Of a stretch of 64,000 nucleotides of DNA, positions 1,309 through 28,710 are shown piece by piece. Under the pieces are notes generated by a model, which saw only the letters and a list, made by a program, of their open reading frames with translations, was not told the origin of the DNA and made no database searches. The position numbers and the translations under genes were made by a program. This DNA comes from Candidatus Pseudoruminococcus merdavium (GTDB lineage Bacteria > Bacillota > Clostridia > Oscillospirales > Ruminococcaceae), in NCBI GenBank assembly GCA_904419745.1, contig CAJFSS010000007.1:1-64000 (forward strand), given 5' to 3'. The first letter of the stretch is position 1, and every line of letters begins with the position of its first letter.

Positions 1309-3410
1309 GCAGTCCCACAATTACATCGCAGACACATGCTTCCCAGGAAGCGGGGAAACATCGCCGCCATACAACAGAGCTTTTGCAGAAAAATCTTCTC
1401 TTTGCACTGGCGGGAAACCAAAACTCTGGAAAAACCACTTTATTCAATGCTCTAACCGGGAGCAATCAGCATGTGGGCAACTTCCCCGGCGTTACGGTAG
1501 AACGAAAAGACGGTGCGATGAAGGGGCACAGAGAGGCGGTTGTCGTTGACTTGCCGGGGATTTACTCGCTTTCCCCCTATACCTCAGAGGAAATTGTTAC
1601 CAGAGATTTCTTAATTAAAGATCACCCGGATGCCATTATCAACATCGTGGATGCCACCAATATTGAGAGAAATCTCTATTTAAGCCTTCAGCTCATGGAA
1701 CTTTCCATTCCCATGGTGATTGCGCTGAACATGATGGATGAAGTCCGTGCCAGCGGAAACTCCATTGATGTACAAAAACTTTCGGAACTGCTTGGCATCC
1801 CGGTTGTCCCCATCTCAGCAAGCAAAGGGGAAGGCATTGATGAACTCACCGAAATTGCCCTGCGTACAGCCAGACAGGGAATCCCGCCCAAAAAGATGGA
1901 TTTCTGCACGGGGGAAGTTCATAAGGCCATCCATGCCATTGCGCATGTTATTGAAGAACAAGCCCAGGAATACGGTTATCCCCTGCGTTTTGCTGCCACG
2001 AAACTGGTGGAAGGGGATGAACCGACCATGCAGGCGCTGCACGTCACAGAAAATCAACGGGATATTCTGGGACATGTCATTGATGATATGGAAGCCGCGC
2101 TGGATACCGATCGAGAGGCTGCCCTGGCGGATATGCGCTACAATTTTATCGAAAACCTCTGTGCCAAATGTGTGGTCAAACGACATGAAACACATGAACA
2201 GGTGCGCAGTGAAAAAATAGATAGGATTTTAACCCACAAATACCTGGGCATCCCCATTTTCTTTGTCATTATGCTGGTAGTGTTTTGGCTCACATTCGGT
2301 GTAGTGGGGAGTTTCCTCAGCGGCCTGTTTGAATCCGGAGTGAACTTCCTTGTGGACAGTCTTTCCTCTCTGCTTACTCATATTGGCGTCAGCGATTGGA
2401 TGCATTCGCTGGTTATTGATGGAATCTGTGCCGGCGTGGGGAGTGTGCTCTCCTTCTTGCCAGTCATTGTCCTGTTGTTTTTCTTCCTATCCCTGCTCGA
2501 AGACAGCGGATATATGGCACGTGTAGCATTTGTCATGGATAAACTGTTGAGAAAAATTGGACTTTCCGGACGTTCCTTTGTTCCCATGCTCATCGGATTT
2601 GGCTGCAGTGTCCCTGCTATTATGGCAACCCGTACCCTTTCCAGCGAGCGTGACCGGAAAATGACGATTGTGCTCACCCCTTTTATGTCATGCAGCGCAA
2701 AACTTCCCATTTATGGGATGTTTACTATGGCGTTTTTTCCAAATCATGCTGGTATTGTTATGATCTCCGTATATATTATTGGGATTATAGTGGCAATCCT
2801 TTCCGGGCTTTTGCTCAAAAACACAGTTTTCCGTGGAAAGCCTGTCCCCTTTGTCATGGAACTCCCCGCTTATAGAATCCCATCTGCCAAAAGTGTTTTG
2901 CTCCACATGTGGGAAAAAGCGAAAGACTTTATCCGCAAAGCATTTACCATCATTTTTCTCGCTTCCATGGTTATCTGGTTTTTGCAGAGTTTTGACTGGT
3001 CGTTTAACCTGGTAACTGATAATACTACCAGCATGCTCGCTTCCATTGGCAAATTCATTGCCCCTATCTTTACTCCACTTGGCTTTGCAGATTGGCGTGC
3101 ATCCACCGCACTGATTACTGGAATTACAGCAAAAGAAACCGTTGTCAGCACCTTTACCGTTTTGACCGGTGCTTCCACTAACGCTGAACTTACCACCATG
3201 TTGCACATGGTATTCCCTTCTACACTGACTGCTTTCTCTTTCCTGGTATTCACAGTGCTGTACATGCCCTGTATTGCAGCATTTGCTGCTTCCCGGAGAG
3301 AACTCGGTTCTATGAAGAGTGCTCTTGGCACCGCATTGTTCCAAACTTCCATGGCTTATCTGGTTTCCCTTGTGATCTTCCAAGTTGGAAGGTTGATTCT
3401 GGGAATATGA
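1305..3410 (+). CDS. feoB: ferrous iron transport protein B (FeoB)
   Basis: 701 aa. N-terminal G-domain with the G1 motif GNQNSGKTTLFNALTG, followed by a polytopic membrane domain typical of FeoB. Confidence 0.95.
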   Translation: MSSPTITSQTHASQEAGKHRRHTTELLQKNLLFALAGNQNSGKTTLFNALTGSNQHVGNFPGVTVERKDGAMKGHREAVVVDLPGIYSLSPYTSEEIVTRDFLIKDHPDAIINIVDATNIERNLYLSLQLMELSIPMVIALNMMDEVRASGNSIDVQKLSELLGIPVVPISASKGEGIDELTEIALRTARQGIPPKKMDFCTGEVHKAIHAIAHVIEEQAQEYGYPLRFAATKLVEGDEPTMQALHVTENQRDILGHVIDDMEAALDTDREAALADMRYNFIENLCAKCVVKRHETHEQVRSEKIDRILTHKYLGIPIFFVIMLVVFWLTFGVVGSFLSGLFESGVNFLVDSLSSLLTHIGVSDWMHSLVIDGICAGVGSVLSFLPVIVLLFFFLSLLEDSGYMARVAFVMDKLLRKIGLSGRSFVPMLIGFGCSVPAIMATRTLSSERDRKMTIVLTPFMSCSAKLPIYGMFTMAFFPNHAGIVMISVYIIGIIVAILSGLLLKNTVFRGKPVPFVMELPAYRIPSAKSVLLHMWEKAKDFIRKAFTIIFLASMVIWFLQSFDWSFNLVTDNTTSMLASIGKFIAPIFTPLGFADWRASTALITGITAKETVVSTFTVLTGASTNAELTTMLHMVFPSTLTAFSFLVFTVLYMPCIAAFAASRRELGSMKSALGTALFQTSMAYLVSLVIFQVGRLILGI

Positions 3411-3425
3411 GGAGGGAGAAATAAA

Positions 3426-3632
3426 GTGAATCTGGCAGATTTTTTTCTCCTTATTTTGCTGCTGTCCGCTGTTGCCGCGGTCCTGTTCTTCCAACGGAAA
3501 GGTAGGCATTCCAGCGGCTGTACGGGATGTTCCGGATGCAGTGGATGTTCCGCAAAGCACGGCATCCACTGTAAAAAAGTGCCTTCTCCCCAAAAAACGG
3601 GAAAGCCTTTTCAAAACGCTTCCCGGCAGTAA
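3426..3632 (+). CDS. FeoB-associated Cys-rich small membrane protein
   Basis: 68 aa: an N-terminal transmembrane helix followed by GCTGCSGCSGCS. It lies immediately downstream of feoB, matching the 'FeoB-associated Cys-rich membrane protein' family architecture. The true C-terminus may be earlier than this stop. Confidence 0.6.
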   Translation: MNLADFFLLILLLSAVAAVLFFQRKGRHSSGCTGCSGCSGCSAKHGIHCKKVPSPQKTGKPFQNASRQ

Positions 3633-3649
3633 CTGCAATGCTGAAAAGA

Positions 3650-3696
3650 AGACAACCCCTCAGCCTGACTTGAAGAAGCTGAGGGGTTGCTTTTTG
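3650..3696. terminator. Bidirectional intrinsic terminator: hairpin aacccctcagc...gctgaggggtt followed by GCTTTTT
   Basis: An 11 bp stem with a T-run. It lies between the convergent feoB-associated gene (+) and a lipoprotein gene (-). Confidence 0.8.
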
Positions 3697-4428
3697 CTAT
3701 GATAAAGCTTTCAGATTCGTATTCAAAAAATCTTCTGTCTGTTTCTCTTGGCCTTCAATATAAGTGAAAATAAATGCGGTCATCAGCTGCCCTTGTTTGC
3801 GCAAAATGTAGTCCTGGCAGAGATGCCTTCCACCATCCAATTCTAAAGCCGTCACCTTGAACGGCAACACCAAATACTCTTTCCCATGTAGCTGAATGGA
3901 GTAGGTAGCCCCCGCTTGATACCCAAGATCACTGAGCTGTTCCATCTGTCCTTTGAGGACTTGAGCATACTCTTCTTCTGAAAGATTGGAAGCCCCTTTT
4001 GTCAAACCCAAATTCTCCACCGCCAACTGAAACCCGTTCGTACCGTCCTCACTGGTGGTCAGGAAATCATTCACAGATTTTTCGCGGGAGTAATCGTAAT
4101 TTTTCTTCTGTTCTTCTGTGAGTGCAGCATATCCCGCGTCCATGGTCTCCATAATTTCCTCATCTGTTGCAGCAGTCCAGCCCTCCGGCATGGTATAGAC
4201 AAATCCCAGGGATTCATTGGTATAGGTATTCCCCTCCCAGGTTCCTCTATGATATACTACCGATTCAGAACCAGAGGAATTCTCCTGCTGCTCCTGTGGC
4301 ACTAACGCCCCACTGCTGACAGGTTCGGAGGAAAAATCCTCCTCGCTTTTGGAGCCGCATCCACTAAGCATTGTCAGCGAAAAAAAAGCAGCCATTAAAA
4401 ATAGGACGATTCGTTTTCCCTTTTTCAT
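3697..4428 (-). CDS. lipoprotein of unknown function (copy 1 of a tandem paralog pair)
   Basis: 243 aa with a signal peptide and the lipobox LSGC (MKKGKRIVLFLMAAFFSLTMLSGCGSK). It shares a block with the ORF at 4493..5149: RGTWEGNxYTNExLxFxYTMPxGWTAxxDxxxMxxxxxGYAALTEEQKKxYDYSxxKxVxDF. Confidence 0.75.
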   Translation of the reverse strand: MKKGKRIVLFLMAAFFSLTMLSGCGSKSEEDFSSEPVSSGALVPQEQQENSSGSESVVYHRGTWEGNTYTNESLGFVYTMPEGWTAATDEEIMETMDAGYAALTEEQKKNYDYSREKSVNDFLTTSEDGTNGFQLAVENLGLTKGASNLSEEEYAQVLKGQMEQLSDLGYQAGATYSIQLHGKEYLVLPFKVTALELDGGRHLCQDYILRKQGQLMTAFIFTYIEGQEKQTEDFLNTNLKALS

Positions 4429-19738: not shown

Positions 19739-20231
19739 CGTTTCGCCCCTTTATCTCGCAAAAAACAATTGTATCCTTAGTTTCGGTTTTCAGGCAATCC
19801 CTGTTGAAAAGCGATCTATAAAACCAAAACGGTCGCCACATCCTTGCAAATAGTACTGGAGTCATTGGCAAACCGCATTTCAAGCGATTTGCCCTTCTAC
19901 TTTCCTGTCTGCAGAGTAAAACCGTACTTTGGGGTTATGATACCATATCTCTCCTCTTTCTGCAAATGACAAAACAGAGAAAATCCTCCTTCTATCGAAT
20001 CCTGTTCCCGCTTTCCATGTAATTTCTCCATCTCATATCAGCGGCAATTCCACAAAACTTCCGGGCTTTCGGTAGCCTCCGCTTGGTATTCCAATCCTTC
20101 CGTTCACTGCTTCGCCGTATTCTACTATAGAGAATTTCCGTCTCTGCATGGAAAATCCCCCATCCCTCTTTTTTCAGAGGAACGGGGAATGGCTTCCAAA
20201 AATACGCACAGAAGTTCCCAAATTAGCTTAA

Positions 20232-20381
20232 TCACAACACCAACCACAATGCCTGCACCGTTCGCATTGATAATACCGTAAATTTTTCTAGGTTCTCCAT
20301 CCTGCTTTTCTTTATATAAAGAGTAAATCCTGGCCCCAGAATCAACAGTCCTATGAGGAACGCCACCGCGTTATACATCAT
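20232..20381 (-). CDS. Putative 49-aa small membrane protein, translationally coupled to the P1B ATPase: MMYNAVAFLIGLLILGPGFTLYIKKSRMENLEKFTVLSMRTVQALWLVL
   Basis: Its ATG overlaps the ATPase TGA stop as ATGA. It has one clear hydrophobic helix. Short and unverified. Confidence 0.3.
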   Translation of the reverse strand: MMYNAVAFLIGLLILGPGFTLYIKKSRMENLEKFTVLSMRTVQALWLVL

Positions 20382-22249
20382 GTTCGCTTTTTCCATTTCA
20401 GTAAAAATGCAGAGTTGATGATCACGAGGACAGATCCGGTGTTGTGGACCAGTGCGCCGACTACCGGGTTTAAGACACCGGTAATCGCCAAAATAATCGC
20501 GGCAAAGTTTAGGGCCATAGAAAACGTGAGATTGCACTTAATAGTCACCATCATCCGCTTGGAAAGCGCCAGCAGATGTGGAAGTTCCTTGACCTCATCA
20601 TCCACAAGCGCAATATCCGCCGCATCCACGGCGATATCACTGCCAACGCCGCCCATCGCAATGCCGATATTCGCTTTTTTCAGTGCCGGGGCGTCGTTGA
20701 CCCCGTCCCCAATCATACAGACGGATTGTCCCTGTTTTTGACAGCTTTCAATAAAACGAAGTTTTTCTTCCGGCAGGCAGTCCGCATGTACTTCCTCAAT
20801 GGAAAGCTGCCCGGCGATGGTTTTCGCAGCACTTTCATGATCTCCTGTGAGCAGTACCGGCGAAACGTCGAGGCCAATCAGCCTGCGCACCATTTCCCCG
20901 CTTTCCGGACGCACGGTATCCGACAGTGCAAGAAATCCCGCTGGCTGCCCATCCACTGATAAATAAATGACCGTACAGCCCCGGTCATCATATAGCTTTC
21001 CGGATTCTAGTAAAGAGGGAACGGAAGTCATCCCTTCCCTGGCAAGCAGCTTGCGGTTTCCCGCAAGAATCCGTCTACCCTGCACAACTGCCGCGACGCC
21101 CTGGCCGGGGATCATCTGGAATTCCTCTGTCTGCGGGAGTTCTTTGGAGATTTCCTGTCTACAGCAGCGCACCACCGCTTTGCCCAAAGGGTGTTCGGAA
21201 CGCTGTTCCGCCGCCGCAGCGAGCAGATAGAGTTCTTCTCTTGCCAAACCCGGCAGAATGCTCTTCACCTCGACCACCTGAGGCGTCCCATAGGTCAGCG
21301 TTCCAGTCTTGTCGAACGCAATTTTAGAGACCGAGGCAAGTCGTTCCAATGCATCGCCTTCTCGTACCAGAAACCCGTGTTTGGTTGCATTTCCAATCGC
21401 CGCCATAATGGCGGTCGGTGTTGCCAGAACCAGCGCGCAGGGACAGAAGACGACCAGAATGGTCACCGCACGGATGATCTGTCCACTGAAAATCCAGGTC
21501 AAGGCAGCTGCTGTCAGTGCGATAACAACAATCCAGGTTGCCCAGCGATCCGCCAACCCGACGATTTTCGCCTTGCCCGCGTCCGCCGACTGTACCAGCC
21601 GGATCATCCTCTGGATAGAACTGTCCTCCCCGACCTTTGTTGCCCTCATATCAAAAGAGCCGAACTGATTGACCGTCCCACTGGAAACTTCATCCCCAGC
21701 ACTTTTGTCTACCGGAAGGGATTCTCCGGTCATCACCGCCTGGTTAATGGAGGTCTGTCCGGACAGGATCACCCCGTCCACCGGGATGGTTTCGCCCGGC
21801 AGCACACGGAGAATATCCCCCACGCAAACCTGCTCCGCCGGGATCACGGTTTCCTGACCTTCAGAAATCACTCTTGCCGTGCGCGGCGTCAGGTGGACAA
21901 GTTTTTCAATCCCTGCCCGCGCTTTCGCTACGGTCAAATCTTCCAGCAGCGCGCCGAGCTGCATGATAAAGGCGACTTCACCCGCAGCAAAATCCTCCCC
22001 AATAATTACCGAGGCAATCAGTGCCAGTGAAACCAGCACGTCCGCTTTGATGTCAAAGGCGGTGACAAGCCCAATCACTGCTTCCAGGATAATCGGGATT
22101 CCACACAGAATAATCGCCACCCATGCCGCATCAAATGGGAGTGGAATCAAATCTAGCATACTGACAAGCAGCGCTATTCCGGAAATCACCAGAAAGGCGA
22201 TATCCTTTTTGGTTCCTCCAATTTCAAGAAATTCTTCCAATTTTTCCAT
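20378..22249 (-). CDS. heavy-metal-translocating P1B-type ATPase lacking an N-terminal HMA domain (CPC motif)
   Basis: 623 aa. Motifs DKTGTLT, GDGVNDAPAL and the transmembrane CPC (VVFCPCALVLATP). The protein begins directly with transmembrane helices. The last helix reads HNTGS, where Cu-type ATPases have MxxSS and Zn-type have DxG. Confidence 0.85.
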   Translation of the reverse strand: MEKLEEFLEIGGTKKDIAFLVISGIALLVSMLDLIPLPFDAAWVAIILCGIPIILEAVIGLVTAFDIKADVLVSLALIASVIIGEDFAAGEVAFIMQLGALLEDLTVAKARAGIEKLVHLTPRTARVISEGQETVIPAEQVCVGDILRVLPGETIPVDGVILSGQTSINQAVMTGESLPVDKSAGDEVSSGTVNQFGSFDMRATKVGEDSSIQRMIRLVQSADAGKAKIVGLADRWATWIVVIALTAAALTWIFSGQIIRAVTILVVFCPCALVLATPTAIMAAIGNATKHGFLVREGDALERLASVSKIAFDKTGTLTYGTPQVVEVKSILPGLAREELYLLAAAAEQRSEHPLGKAVVRCCRQEISKELPQTEEFQMIPGQGVAAVVQGRRILAGNRKLLAREGMTSVPSLLESGKLYDDRGCTVIYLSVDGQPAGFLALSDTVRPESGEMVRRLIGLDVSPVLLTGDHESAAKTIAGQLSIEEVHADCLPEEKLRFIESCQKQGQSVCMIGDGVNDAPALKKANIGIAMGGVGSDIAVDAADIALVDDEVKELPHLLALSKRMMVTIKCNLTFSMALNFAAIILAITGVLNPVVGALVHNTGSVLVIINSAFLLKWKKRT

Positions 22250-22265
22250 TGGATTCCCTCCTTTT

Positions 22266-22306
22266 ATACCTATAGGGGTATATGTTTATTATACGGGTGG
22301 GGGTAT
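22266..22306. promoter_or_regulatory. Promoter (TTGACT, 18 bp spacer, TATAAT on the minus strand) with two degenerate CsoR-like boxes (ATACCTATAGGGGTAT and ATACGGGTGGGGGTAT), upstream of the HMA-less ATPase
   Basis: The half-sites ATACC and GGGTAT match the CsoR boxes upstream of csoR at 25424..25465. One box lies in the promoter spacer and the other just downstream of the -10 element. Confidence 0.45.
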
Positions 22307-22408
22307 TGATAAGTCAAGGGAAACATTTGTACAGCTAAATCCTTTGGCGAACAAAAAATCTCCCGGAACATGCAAATCGTGTCCGGGAGATTTCTTCTGG
22401 GTATCTCT

Positions 22409-25060: not shown

Positions 25061-25402
25061 CTATTTAAGCCTTTTTATCAGTTCCACGGCTTCCTCAATC
25101 ACCTGGGTATTCCCTTTCTGCACTTCCTCAACCACACAGGTTTCCAGGTGACTCTGCAAAACCAGATACCCAAAGGATTGAAGCGCGCTTTCCACTGCGG
25201 CAACCTGCATCAGGATATCCCCACAATAGCGGTTATCATCCAGCATTTTACTGATACCGCCAAGCTGCCCGACCATCCGTTTGATACGGTTTTGCAGCAG
25301 GGTCAGTTCCCTTCCACTGCGGGGCGTCGCCTTGTGGTGACAGGGACATTCGCGCTGCTGCCCGGGGGCATTTGTCTTCTTTTCCTGTTTTTCCATCTGC
25401 AA
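25061..25402 (-). CDS. csoR: CsoR-family metal-sensing transcriptional repressor
   Basis: 113 aa with a CsoR/RcnR helical-bundle pattern (C-H-C metal ligands; ...YCGDILMQVAAVESAL...). Encoded directly upstream of copA. Confidence 0.85.
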   Translation of the reverse strand: MQMEKQEKKTNAPGQQRECPCHHKATPRSGRELTLLQNRIKRMVGQLGGISKMLDDNRYCGDILMQVAAVESALQSFGYLVLQSHLETCVVEEVQKGNTQVIEEAVELIKRLK

Positions 25403-25423
25403 GCCTCCTCAAAATACCCGATA

Positions 25424-25465
25424 GGGGTATTTCGTTTTCTCTATTATAATACCCCCTATGGGTAT
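25424..25465. promoter_or_regulatory. Two canonical CsoR operators, ATACCC-GATAG-GGGTAT and ATACCC-CCTAT-GGGTAT, flanking a TATAAT -10 element upstream of csoR-copA
   Basis: Both boxes are perfect 6-N5-6 inverted repeats and match the known GC-rich CsoR operator architecture. They lie 22 and 47 bp upstream of the csoR start. Confidence 0.7.
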
Positions 25466-26598: not shown

Positions 26599-28710
26599 TT
26601 ACAGGATTCGTTGCTGTTTCAACTTTTCCTTCGCATCTTTATGCAGCAGGTTTTCCATACTTTTTAAGCTGATGGCAAGCGTTGAGGCATTGTGCAACAA
26701 GGCAGATGTAGTGGGTTGTATCATTCCACCAACCCCCAGGGCAATCAATGTCCCGTTAATTGCCAAAATGGATTTATAATTTCGGTCGATCCGGCGCATC
26801 ATAGCGGTACTCAGCCGTCGTAGCGTGAGTAACTCCCGTAAATTGTCCGCCCCGATCGTGATATCGGCAATTTCCCGTGCAATCTCCGCCCCATCGCTGA
26901 TGGCGATTCCAACGTCTGCCGCGGACAGCGCCGGAGAATCATTGATCCCGTCCCCAATCATGACAACTCCGCTGCCCCGCTCCCGCTCTTTCAGGACAAA
27001 GTTTGCCTTATCTTCCGGCAGGACTTCAGAATAATATTCGTCCACGCCAACTCTTGCCGCAATAGCCGAAGCCGTGCGCTCGCTATCCCCTGTCATCATG
27101 ACTATTTTCCGGAACCCCTCCGTCTTCAGTTGCGCGATGACTTCAATTGCTTCTTCCCTTAGAGGGTCTTCAATCAGGATCACCGCTGCAAGTTCTCCAT
27201 CCATAGCCAGATAAAGATGGGAAAACTCTGTCGGAAGCCGCTCAAAGCGTTCCTGATATTCCTCCCGTATCTTACAGCCTTCATCTTCAAAAACAAAATG
27301 ATGGCTCCCGATAATAACCCGTTTGTCCCCGATGTAGGAAGTAATACCGTGCGCGACAATATAATCCACTTTGGAGTGCATTTCCTCATGCTCTAAATGC
27401 TGTTGCTGCGCCGCACGCACCACCGCTTTGGCCATGGAATGCGGAAAATGTTCTTCCAGGCAGGCCGCCACTCTCAGCATCTCTTGTGCGTTAAAATCCC
27501 CGAACGGCACGACCTCTTTTACGGTAGGCTGCGCCTTTGTAAGCGTCCCGGTTTTATCAAAGACGATGGTGGACGCGCAAGACAATGCCTCCAGATACTT
27601 TCCGCCTTTGACAGTAATATGATGGGCACTTGCTTCCCGGATAGCGGAAAGCACTGTAATTGGCATAGCAAGCTTTAGCGCGCAGGAAAAATCCACCATC
27701 AGGACAGACAGTGCCTTTGTCAGATTGCGTGTAAACAGCCCGACTAAGAGCGTCCCAAGAAAAGTATAGGGCACCAGACGATCTGCCAAGTGCTCAGCTT
27801 TCCCCTCCACGGCGGACTTAAGTTTTTCCGATTCCTCAATCATGGTGATAATTTTTTCATAGCGGGTCGAACCAGAGACCTCTTTGACCCGGATGGTAAG
27901 CTCTCCTTCTTCTACGACCGTACCCGCATAGGCATAGCTGTCCACTTCTTTTTTCACCGGAAGGCTTTCGCCAGTCAGAGAAGCCTGATTAACCATCGCC
28001 TCTCCTCCTACCACAAGCCCGTCAAAGGGGATCAGATTGCCCATATGGACTACCACTTCATCGGCGGGCTGTATTTCCGAGGCGTCTACCAGGATTTCCT
28101 GTCCCTCCCGCTTAAGCCAGACCTTGCCCACATTTAAGGACATACTGCGTGCCAGATCCCCGACGGATTTCTTATGCGTCCATTCTTCCAGAATTTCTCC
28201 AATTCCAAGCAGGAACATCACAGAACTAGCCGTACGGAAGTCTCCGCGCACAATGGAAATTCCAATTGCCGTTGCATCCAACACAGGGACTTCCAGTTTC
28301 TTTTTGCACAGACACTGAAAACCATGGCGGAGATATTTGAGAGATTTAAACACAATATACCCTGCCCGGACCGGAGTGGGCAGGAACTTGGTAAACAGGT
28401 GCAAAACCGCTTTCCCGATCAGCTTTTCCCGGTATTTGGCATTCAGTCTACGCCCGGAACTTTCCAACACCGCCTGTGGCACGTCCACTTTTTCATACCG
28501 GAACCCTTTCAGGGCAATTATCAGCTGTTCCCGGCTTCCGGTATAAAAAATCGCTGCATCCGCTGTCTGTTCGTAAACTTTCGCCTTGGTGACATAGCTG
28601 AGGCTTTCCAGAAAATAAAGCAGGGTATCCGCCTGTTCAAAAGACATCTTCGCCTGTACCATATGAATACGGATACGCCCGGACATCTCATGTTTGATAA
28701 CAAATTTCAC
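26599..28710 (-). CDS. P1B-type ATPase with an 'SCA' transmembrane motif (P1B-6-like, substrate uncharacterised)
   Basis: 703 aa. Motifs DKTGTLT and GDGINDSPAL. The transmembrane helix carries SCA (MVDFSCALKLAMP) where CPC is usual. The N-terminal domain has a ferredoxin-like fold but lacks CxxC. Confidence 0.85.
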   Translation of the reverse strand: MKFVIKHEMSGRIRIHMVQAKMSFEQADTLLYFLESLSYVTKAKVYEQTADAAIFYTGSREQLIIALKGFRYEKVDVPQAVLESSGRRLNAKYREKLIGKAVLHLFTKFLPTPVRAGYIVFKSLKYLRHGFQCLCKKKLEVPVLDATAIGISIVRGDFRTASSVMFLLGIGEILEEWTHKKSVGDLARSMSLNVGKVWLKREGQEILVDASEIQPADEVVVHMGNLIPFDGLVVGGEAMVNQASLTGESLPVKKEVDSYAYAGTVVEEGELTIRVKEVSGSTRYEKIITMIEESEKLKSAVEGKAEHLADRLVPYTFLGTLLVGLFTRNLTKALSVLMVDFSCALKLAMPITVLSAIREASAHHITVKGGKYLEALSCASTIVFDKTGTLTKAQPTVKEVVPFGDFNAQEMLRVAACLEEHFPHSMAKAVVRAAQQQHLEHEEMHSKVDYIVAHGITSYIGDKRVIIGSHHFVFEDEGCKIREEYQERFERLPTEFSHLYLAMDGELAAVILIEDPLREEAIEVIAQLKTEGFRKIVMMTGDSERTASAIAARVGVDEYYSEVLPEDKANFVLKERERGSGVVMIGDGINDSPALSAADVGIAISDGAEIAREIADITIGADNLRELLTLRRLSTAMMRRIDRNYKSILAINGTLIALGVGGMIQPTTSALLHNASTLAISLKSMENLLHKDAKEKLKQQRIL

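Follow-up and report, generated by a model that had tools for sequence, protein, structure and literature searches.

What kind of metal pump lies directly behind a csoR-copA pair, what controls it, and does the short open reading frame (ORF) at its 3' end belong to it? These questions were raised by a stretch of 64,000 nucleotides from Candidatus Pseudoruminococcus merdavium (GenBank assembly GCA_904419745.1, contig CAJFSS010000007.1, positions 1 to 64,000; the whole stretch is called the window below). A preliminary description of this DNA had placed a second P1B-type ATPase of 623 amino acids directly downstream of csoR-copA, and ORF coordinates and Pfam matches confirmed it. We concluded that a metal-efflux cassette of three parts, widespread among gut Clostridia, is probably present here in a rearranged and partly decayed form. 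When intact, the cassette consists of a 91-amino-acid CsoR-family repressor with a single 16-bp box upstream, a sigma-70 promoter with two 16-bp operators 25 bp apart (one over the spacer and -10 element, one just downstream), and a P1B ATPase of 620-630 amino acids without an HMA domain (CPC in transmembrane helix 4 (TM4), LN in TM5 and HN(A/T)GS in TM6) that is translationally coupled to a two-helix membrane hairpin protein of 55-58 amino acids. In the window, the pump and its two operators are undamaged and conserved; the 64 kb hold no gene for the repressor, whose place upstream is taken by csoR-copA.

When one genome per species was scanned for relatives of the pump, about 575 stretches were found to encode them, and 80 loci (from Christensenellales, Oscillospiraceae, Lachnospiraceae, Clostridium and others) were kept. 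The kept pumps are 72-79% identical over their full length, all 614-635 amino acids long and all without an N-terminal domain, and they share the C-terminal pattern ALVHN(A/T/C)GSV...NS. The window pump is 100% identical to protein P0001, which belongs to a cluster with HJB26421.1. Carriers that can be grown in culture are Christensenella sp. Marseille-P2438, Clostridium ragsdalei P11, Clostridium aminobutyricum DSM 2634, Flavonifractor sp. An100, Zhenpiania hominis BX12 and Faecalicatena fissicatena KCTC 15010. Directly upstream of the pump, 54 of the 80 loci carry a 91-amino-acid CsoR-family (PF02583) paralogue that is almost invariant across orders, with conserved C4, P33-C34, H59, H62-C63 and H70. 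In many of the loci with the paralogue, another 16-bp box lies about 420-540 bp 5' of the pump start, in front of the regulator gene.

At 83 loci, the 200 bp 5' of the pump start codon were scanned for ATACC-N6-GGTAT, one mismatch being allowed. At least one such 16-bp box was found at 80 of the 83 loci and two boxes at 60, the spacing being exactly 25 bp in 44 of these 60. The consensus of 41 pump promoters reads TCTTGACAACCT-ATACCCCTATAGGTAT-AATATACCT-ATACCCCTATAGGTAT-A..GAGG, or in shorter form TTGACAACCT-ATACCCCTATAGGTAT-AAT...ATACCCCTATAGGTATA..GGAGG. Among these orthologous promoters, TTGACA was matched at five or more of its six positions in 38 of 41, and TATAAT, overlapping the first box, equally well in 41 of 41.

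The promoter of the window pump follows the same plan. Box 1 spans most of the -35/-10 spacer and runs three bases into the -10 hexamer, and box 2 begins 6 nt 3' of the -10, so that a bound protein would cover the -10 element and the transcription start. Box 2 matches the 16-bp class exactly and box 1 with one mismatch, their spacing is 25 bp, and they are placed relative to -35 and -10 as elsewhere. Five matches to ATACC-N6-GGTAT (at most one mismatch) were found in the window against 1.05 expected, and none of 100 shuffles reached five. In the sister lineage L085 (pump 88% identical; gene order csoR-copA-ATPase followed by an intact 58-amino-acid gene), the counterpart of box 1 is ATACCCCTAACCGTAT at the same position, with the outer half-sites retained, and the stretch of box 2 and the Shine-Dalgarno region is identical at 30 of 30 positions, compared with 63.5% identity at the third codon positions of the pump. 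Since both boxes are kept in orthologous promoters, they are not chance matches, and their conservation relative to L085 implies that some protein still reads the sites in the window. These comparisons mark them as genuine CsoR-family operators over the promoter. The preliminary description had seen in them two degenerate CsoR-type boxes, one in the spacer and one just past the -10 element. Their existence, position and conservation in orthologues were borne out; they are not degenerate CsoR boxes, as there is a separate 16-bp class (TAC-N8-GTA) whose consensus box 2 reproduces exactly.

Characterised CsoR operators are TAC-N9-GTA dyads around a G/C tract (PMC3902906). When 32 canonical csoR loci (independent loci from metagenomes) were inspected, 17-bp boxes were found in 26 and a 16-bp box in none. 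Both classes lie next to each other in the window, unmixed: the csoR-copA promoter carries two ATACC-N7-GGTAT boxes, which have the TAC-N9-GTA form, and the ATPase boxes have TAC-N8-GTA and fall outside the canonical definition. Paired CsoR sites in gut Firmicutes had been noted by an earlier metagenomic study, which found spacing classes of 26 and of 36-38 bp and assigned every target to CopA under one CsoR (PMC4938975). By the present data, these spacing classes are split between two regulator-pump pairs. Two loci are exceptions to the spacing rule, L072 with two 17-bp boxes before its HMA-less pump and L069 with one 17-bp and one imperfect 16-bp box; no regulator gene was found next to either pump, L072 having only 293 bp upstream.

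The 91-amino-acid PF02583 gene was not found directly upstream of the pump in the window. About one third of the pump loci with good boxes have no adjacent regulator either, and together with the conservation of the operators this makes a paralogue encoded elsewhere in the genome the simplest reading. The repressor of the window pump would thus most likely be supplied in trans. In L086, whose pump is 92% identical, the 91-amino-acid paralogue lies upstream in place of csoR-copA. From about nt 800 of the pump gene to a point past the small gene, the DNA of the window and of L086 is 100% identical; before nt 800, 18-37 differences per 100 nt were counted, and the upstream regions are unrelated. 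The pattern indicates a recombination breakpoint near the CPC codons (window about 21430..21450); the exchange took in the first third of the pump gene, its promoter and the regulator.

The pump itself was compared with P1B references by bit score against solved structures and NCBIfam models. Its membership in the P1B ATPases is clear (TIGR01525 568 bits, cutoff 346), and the motifs TGES174, CPC269, DKTGT313, TGD468, GDG514, N573-x6-L580-N581 (TM5) and HNTGS602-606 (TM6) were read. E1-E2_ATPase and Hydrolase were the only Pfam matches; the same scan gave no match to HMA (PF00403), and the protein begins at its first membrane helices. Thus, the earlier statement that the pump has CPC and no N-terminal metal-binding domain was upheld by both Pfam and motif reading. 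Pumps of subgroup P1B-1 (Cu(I)/Ag(I)) carry N-x6-YN-x4-P in TM5 and M-xx-SS in TM6, and those of P1B-2 (Zn/Cd/Pb) carry N-x7-K in TM5 and DxG in TM6. Neither pattern was found. For P1B-1, YN is replaced by L580-N581, P by I586 and MSLSS by HNTGS, and the cytoplasmic HMA domain with CxxC is lacking; for P1B-2, N581 stands at the Lys position and TM6 has no Asp, as read from the motifs and not from a residue-by-residue alignment with ZntA. When the pump was aligned with the CopA of the window (39% identity), four of the six positions that we take to be Cu(I)-pump ligands were retained (both Cys of CPC, N581 and S606) and two were lost, the Tyr of YN to Leu580 and the Met of MxxSS to His602.

The third comparison was with P1B-4 ATPases (sCoaT, PDB 7qbz; CtpD, PfeT, CzcP), which likewise have no N-terminal metal-binding domain, a similar size and the aligned His in TM6. 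The C-terminal helices of the pump align best with sCoaT, HNTGS standing opposite HEGST of 7qbz with the His kept and Glu changed to Asn. The reading of HNTGS as a non-classical, P1B-4-like motif therefore held, and the same residues also align with MSLSS of CopA. However, the P1B-4 signature (SPC in TM4, HEGxT in TM6) is broken by CPC in place of SPC and by Asn in place of Glu, and the pump is overall no closer to P1B-4 (281 bits with sCoaT) than to Cu pumps (316-329 bits with the solved ones) or to the Zn pump ZntA (288 bits). By contrast, the window CopA scored 511-586 bits against Cu pumps and 303-316 against the others. Among the NCBIfam models, the Cd-family TIGR01512 (466 bits) scored higher than the Cu model TIGR01511 (426 bits). 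As the pump is nearly equidistant from Cu, Zn and P1B-4 pumps, it does not fall cleanly into any characterised subgroup.

For the substrate, Cu(I)/Ag(I) is slightly favoured over a divalent metal, at what we would call an even chance. The closest solved pumps are Cu(I) pumps and the operator is a CsoR-type dyad. The x-C-H-C fingerprint, with second-shell Tyr and Glu, has been assigned to Cu(I) sensors (PMC8643695); in the 91-amino-acid paralogue, C34, H59 and C63 are invariant and a Glu lies close to where one is expected, but an invariant Pro33 stands in place of the Tyr, and C4 and H62 are conserved in addition. That Cu(I) can still be pumped after a change to His is known from CPH pumps (PMC7558416). 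Copper dependence of the window pump, which the preliminary description had suggested, is plausible. At one locus (L070), where the 16-bp boxes lie about 470-495 bp 5' of the pump start, an ORF 18 nt after the pump stop was recognised, by eye only, as a putative FeoA-like gene. This neighbour is the lone hint to iron.

The TGA of the ATPase overlaps the ATG of the 49-codon ORF (ACATGATG), as had been noted. When the region 3' of the pump stop was translated in related loci, a conserved gene of 54-61 codons was found, with the consensus MIxxIIGLIIGxLILGAGxYYLxKEKxDPESRKIYxIVSxxGAVI.... Of 26 intact copies, 24 start at ATGA, GTGA or TAATG, overlapping the pump stop or lying 2 nt behind it, so that the coupling of the pump to a small membrane-protein gene is conserved. 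AlphaFold2 predicted a two-helix hairpin (H2-24 and H29-57, pLDDT 96). The product of the 49-codon ORF (MMYNAVAFLIGLLILGPGFTLYIKKSRMENLEKFTVLSMRTVQALWLVL) has one hydrophobic N-terminal stretch and gave, as a query against 5.8 billion sequences, a single near-identical match, from the same species only.

The hidden Markov model (HMM) of the family matched the window in two pieces, positions 1-22 in the ORF frame and 17-57 in another frame (E = 1.5e-12); the two helices and the KEKxDPESRKIY loop do not lie in a single frame. Compared with the intact 58-amino-acid gene of L085, 1 bp is deleted after codon 18-19, between 20326 and 20325. The ancestral stop is lost as well, the remnant frame stays open to 20125, and about 30 of the 49 residues are an out-of-frame translation of the ancestral loop and second helix. 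Because the same deletion allele was found in five other assemblies (L081-L084, L086) and the 49-amino-acid product on 46 contigs, we consider it a fixed mutation and not a sequencing error. The frameshift makes the ORF a remnant rather than a new subunit, and the window gene is a pseudogene. Programmed frameshifting was considered as a rescue and rejected, since GGA TTT ACT is no slippery heptamer and the ancestral stop is also gone. Of the proposal of a previously unannotated single-helix subunit, the ORF itself remains as described, but only its first 18-19 codons are in the ancestral frame, and what they belonged to was a two-helix protein of 55-58 amino acids; no family-database model covers that protein, but intact copies already stand as "hypothetical protein" in public records.

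The hairpin family is large. At 90% identity its profile collected at least 1128 clusters, none with a name other than "hypothetical", and at 50% identity 290 representatives, each of them short; intact members and the repaired window sequence gave no significant match in Pfam or NCBIfam. Among the 80 pump loci, the gene is intact in 26, missing in about 47 and decayed in about 6-8. Wherever its surroundings were examined, the gene follows a member of this one pump family at the 3' end, and this position, with usually overlapping codons, suggests co-translation at a fixed ratio. The intact pump beside a dead hairpin gene in the window counts against an obligatory role. The opposite case was seen in one very abundant gut species (L119-L122, about 2941..4001), in which the 91-amino-acid regulator, both boxes and an intact 55-amino-acid hairpin gene are kept and residues 246-518 of the pump, including CPC and the phosphorylation domain, are deleted; 335 indexed blocks of the collection contain the hairpin protein of this species. 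Its distribution thus marks the hairpin as a probable optional accessory of the pump. Short predicted proteins in which different pump fragments are joined in frame to the hairpin (P0311, P0340, P0280, P0286 and P0390) were not used as evidence because they look like deletion derivatives, perhaps recurrent ones, or assembly artefacts. Their junctions often lie at short similar stretches, for example AIG/IIG or VGA/GAG.

Two alternatives concern the control and the metal of the cassette. The adjacent canonical CsoR could itself repress the ATPase through the two boxes, with the pump a member of the csoR-copA copper regulon; the pump does stand directly behind csoR-copA in both the window and L085, and no dedicated paralogue lies within 64 kb. 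The ATACC and GGTAT half-sites are identical in both operator classes, and box 1 has drifted in this lineage, as might follow a change of regulator. However, the segregation of box lengths makes control by this CsoR less likely than control by the paralogue: 16-bp boxes at 80 of 83 pump promoters are set against 17-bp boxes, without any 16-bp box, at the csoR promoters (26 of 32), and the two classes stand side by side in the window without mixing. Although the earlier study counted such promoters in a single CsoR meta-regulon (PMC4938975), characterised CsoRs recognise TAC-N9-GTA (PMC3902906), and the adjacent regulator is missing at about one third of the good-box loci, so that supply in trans is common. 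We therefore regard control by the neighbouring CsoR as unlikely. The case for a divalent metal (Zn, Cd, Co, Ni or Fe) in place of copper is a serious one, to which we would give a little less than an even chance. The paralogue would then sense through Cys4/Cys34/His59/Cys63 and the pump would bind through CPC, His602 and Asn603. HNTGS stands opposite HEGST of sCoaT, a Co/Zn/Cd pump; the window pump has neither the Tyr and Met ligands of Cu(I) pumps nor an HMA domain, the Cd model outscores the Cu model, and the scores against Cu, Zn and P1B-4 pumps, which CopA separates clearly, are nearly level. The regulator has no second-shell Tyr, whereas an additional Cys near its N-terminus is conserved, as is His62, and these genomes already have a separate, insulated CsoR-CopA copper circuit. 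On the other side, the x-C-H-C fingerprint is that of Cu(I) sensors (PMC8643695), and the CPH precedent makes a His substitution compatible with Cu(I) pumping (PMC7558416). The pump moreover retains the TM5 Asn and TM6 Ser of Cu(I) pumps, and it has Asn at the Zn-type Lys position and no Asp in TM6.

The other two alternatives concern the small gene. That the 49-codon ORF encodes a functional, newly shaped single-helix partner of the pump in this species is hardly credible to us: the allele is fixed and widespread and keeps both the ATGA coupling and the first helix, but the product is an out-of-frame translation from about residue 20 to residue 49 and is confined to the same species among the 5.8 billion sequences, and similar decay of the hairpin gene occurred independently in at least six loci (L003, L005, L009, L026, L036 and L075). 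It is less far-fetched, but still improbable, that the whole hairpin family is independent of the pump, a small membrane protein that merely shares its transcript. Most pump loci do without the hairpin, it is kept where the pump carries the deletion, and it was not seen fused to a full-length pump; against this independence, it is always at the 3' end of this one pump family in the contexts examined, and the overlap of its start codon with the pump stop is conserved. Small membrane partners of P1B pumps have been described, namely CcoS next to CcoI (PMC7558416) and PacL of Mycobacterium tuberculosis (PMC13043812). Like KdpF, CcoS/FixS, mycobacterial PacL and FXYD/sarcolipin, the hairpin is a very short membrane protein encoded beside a P-type ATPase and co-expressed with it, and the PacL and CcoS precedents involve P1B pumps (PMC13043812, PMC7558416). 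However, the hairpin has no sequence match to the CcoS/FixS, KdpF and PacL family models of Pfam/NCBIfam, and it differs from these partners in its two helices, its conserved acidic/basic loop (KEKxDPESRKIY) and its optional presence across genomes.

Several results weigh against reading the region as a copy of the cassette. When the 91-amino-acid paralogue was searched in the 64-kb window by tblastn, canonical csoR was the only match (32% identity), and what speaks for a paralogue elsewhere in this genome is the conservation of the operators only. A literature search for the operator sequences found no paper printing them. The hairpin cannot be an obligatory subunit, as it is missing or decayed at most of the loci; the deletion of the L119-L122 pump next to an intact hairpin and regulator argues against strict co-dependence, and the search for fusions gave no full-length pump-hairpin fusion. 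The loss of the Tyr of YN and the Met of MxxSS, together with the Pro that replaces a nearly invariant Tyr in the sensor, conflicts with Cu(I) as indicated by the sensor fingerprint and overall similarity.

If the cassette works as its parts suggest, the apo-repressor would occupy both operators and block RNA polymerase, metal bound at the Cys-His-Cys site would release it, and the pump would then export the metal. The hairpin would be made at a matched level, as a dispensable accessory that may interact with the pump. Each part of the cassette is a variant of something already known. A cell with two CsoR-type sensors has a precedent in CsoR/RicR of M. tuberculosis (PMC8643695), and the CsoR-CopA circuits of the Firmicutes B. 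subtilis, S. aureus and L. monocytogenes, like CsoR/RicR of M. tuberculosis, share with the cassette a PF02583 Cys-His-Cys repressor, ATACC...GGTAT dyads around C/G tracts over the promoter and a P1B ATPase as target. In contrast to these circuits, the cassette operator is 1 bp shorter (TAC-N8-GTA vs TAC-N9-GTA) and its dual sites are spaced by 25 bp instead of 34-38. The regulator has Pro for the second-shell Tyr, with conserved Cys4 and His62 in addition, and the pump lacks the HMA domain, the Tyr of YN and the Met of MxxSS of CopA. New are the geometry of the operators, which goes with a CsoR paralogue dedicated to them, a pump signature that the current rules do not cover, and a family of hairpin micro-proteins not described before. 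A bolder reading, which we put forward tentatively and think rather unlikely, is that of an uncharacterised P1B subgroup (CPC / LN / HN(A/T)GS) whose CsoR-family sensor would have a site of a new, C-C-H-C type and would be insulated from CsoR by an operator shorter by 1 bp. The hairpin would then be a micro-subunit that replaces the missing cytoplasmic metal-binding domain, for example through its acidic loop, and the substrate would lie outside the signature rules.

Metal handling in gut Clostridia is mostly inferred from sequence signatures, and this common cassette (about 575 stretches) breaks them for both pump and sensor. The split between 16-bp and 17-bp boxes offers a clear case, open to testing, of how cross-talk between two CsoR paralogues in the same cell could be avoided, and the hairpin family is a new candidate among the few micro-proteins attached to P1B pumps. 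The window also holds a caution, as it lacks the cognate regulator and its striking 49-codon ORF is what is left of a pseudogene. The features of the region are listed in Table 1.

Table 1 Features of the csoR-copA and HMA-less ATPase region, in window positions
Feature	Position	Strand	Basis or remark
Two canonical 17-bp CsoR boxes, ATACCCATAGGGGGTAT and ATACCCCTATCGGGTAT (TAC-N9-GTA), 35 bp apart	25414..25465	(-)	csoR-copA promoter
csoR	25061..25402	(-)	PF02583
copA, 878 amino acids	22409..25045	(-)	Two HMA domains, one at each end
Intrinsic terminator, RNA hairpin then U-run, 3' of copA	22353..22396	(-)	RNA fold -23 kcal/mol, z = -5.0, 0/200 shuffles as stable
Sigma-70 type promoter of ATPase, TTGACT-18 nt-TATAAT	22317..22288	(-)	11/12 match, best of the region
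Operator box 1, ATACCCCCACCCGTAT	22306..22291	(-)	16-bp class, 1 mismatch in right half-site
Operator box 2, ATACCCCTATAGGTAT	22281..22266	(-)	Exact 16-bp class consensus (TAC-N8-GTA)
Shine-Dalgarno GGAGG	22257..22261	(-)	7 nt 5' of ATPase ATG; direct sequence reading
HMA-less P1B-type ATPase, 623 amino acids	20378..22249	(-)	Motifs, Pfam and family comparison
49-codon ORF, ATG overlapping ATPase TGA	20232..20381	(-)	18-19 authentic codons, then about 30 out of frame
In-frame 5' part of small hairpin-protein gene, codons 1-19	20325..20381	(-)	Family HMM positions 1-22; L085 alignment
1-bp deletion site	20325..20326	(-)	MAFFT alignment with L085: GGATT^TAC here, GGATTCTAT in L085
Out-of-frame remnant of loop and second helix (…YKEKQDGEPRKIYGIINANGAGIVVGVVIKLIWELL)	20212..20334	(-)	HMM positions 17-57, E = 1.5e-12
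Strong RNA hairpin closing the ATPase/small-gene unit, probable terminator	20149..20198	(-)	RNA fold -31.2 kcal/mol, z = -4.9; weak U-tail AUUUUCC

The RNA hairpin behind copA separates copA from the transcription unit of the ATPase. It had escaped a simple terminator scan on the (-) strand because its loop exceeds the limit of the scan. Some further observations were made on the neighbouring genes. The C-terminal HMA of the window CopA (residues about 809-871) stands besides the N-terminal one, and no separate copZ lies nearby. The canonical CsoR is extended at its N-terminus by about 25 amino acids that include ECPCHH (window 25300..25402, (-) strand), possibly an extra metal site. A third P1B ATPase of 703 amino acids (window 26599..28710, (-) strand) has SCA for CPC in TM4 and HNAST in TM6, and we presume that it resembles the uncharacterised P1B-6 class. 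It shares the His-Asn pair of TM6 with the HMA-less pump (HNAST vs HNTGS), but the two are only 29% identical and differ in TM4 (SCA vs CPC), and the third ATPase has a weak N-terminal HMA_2-like region.

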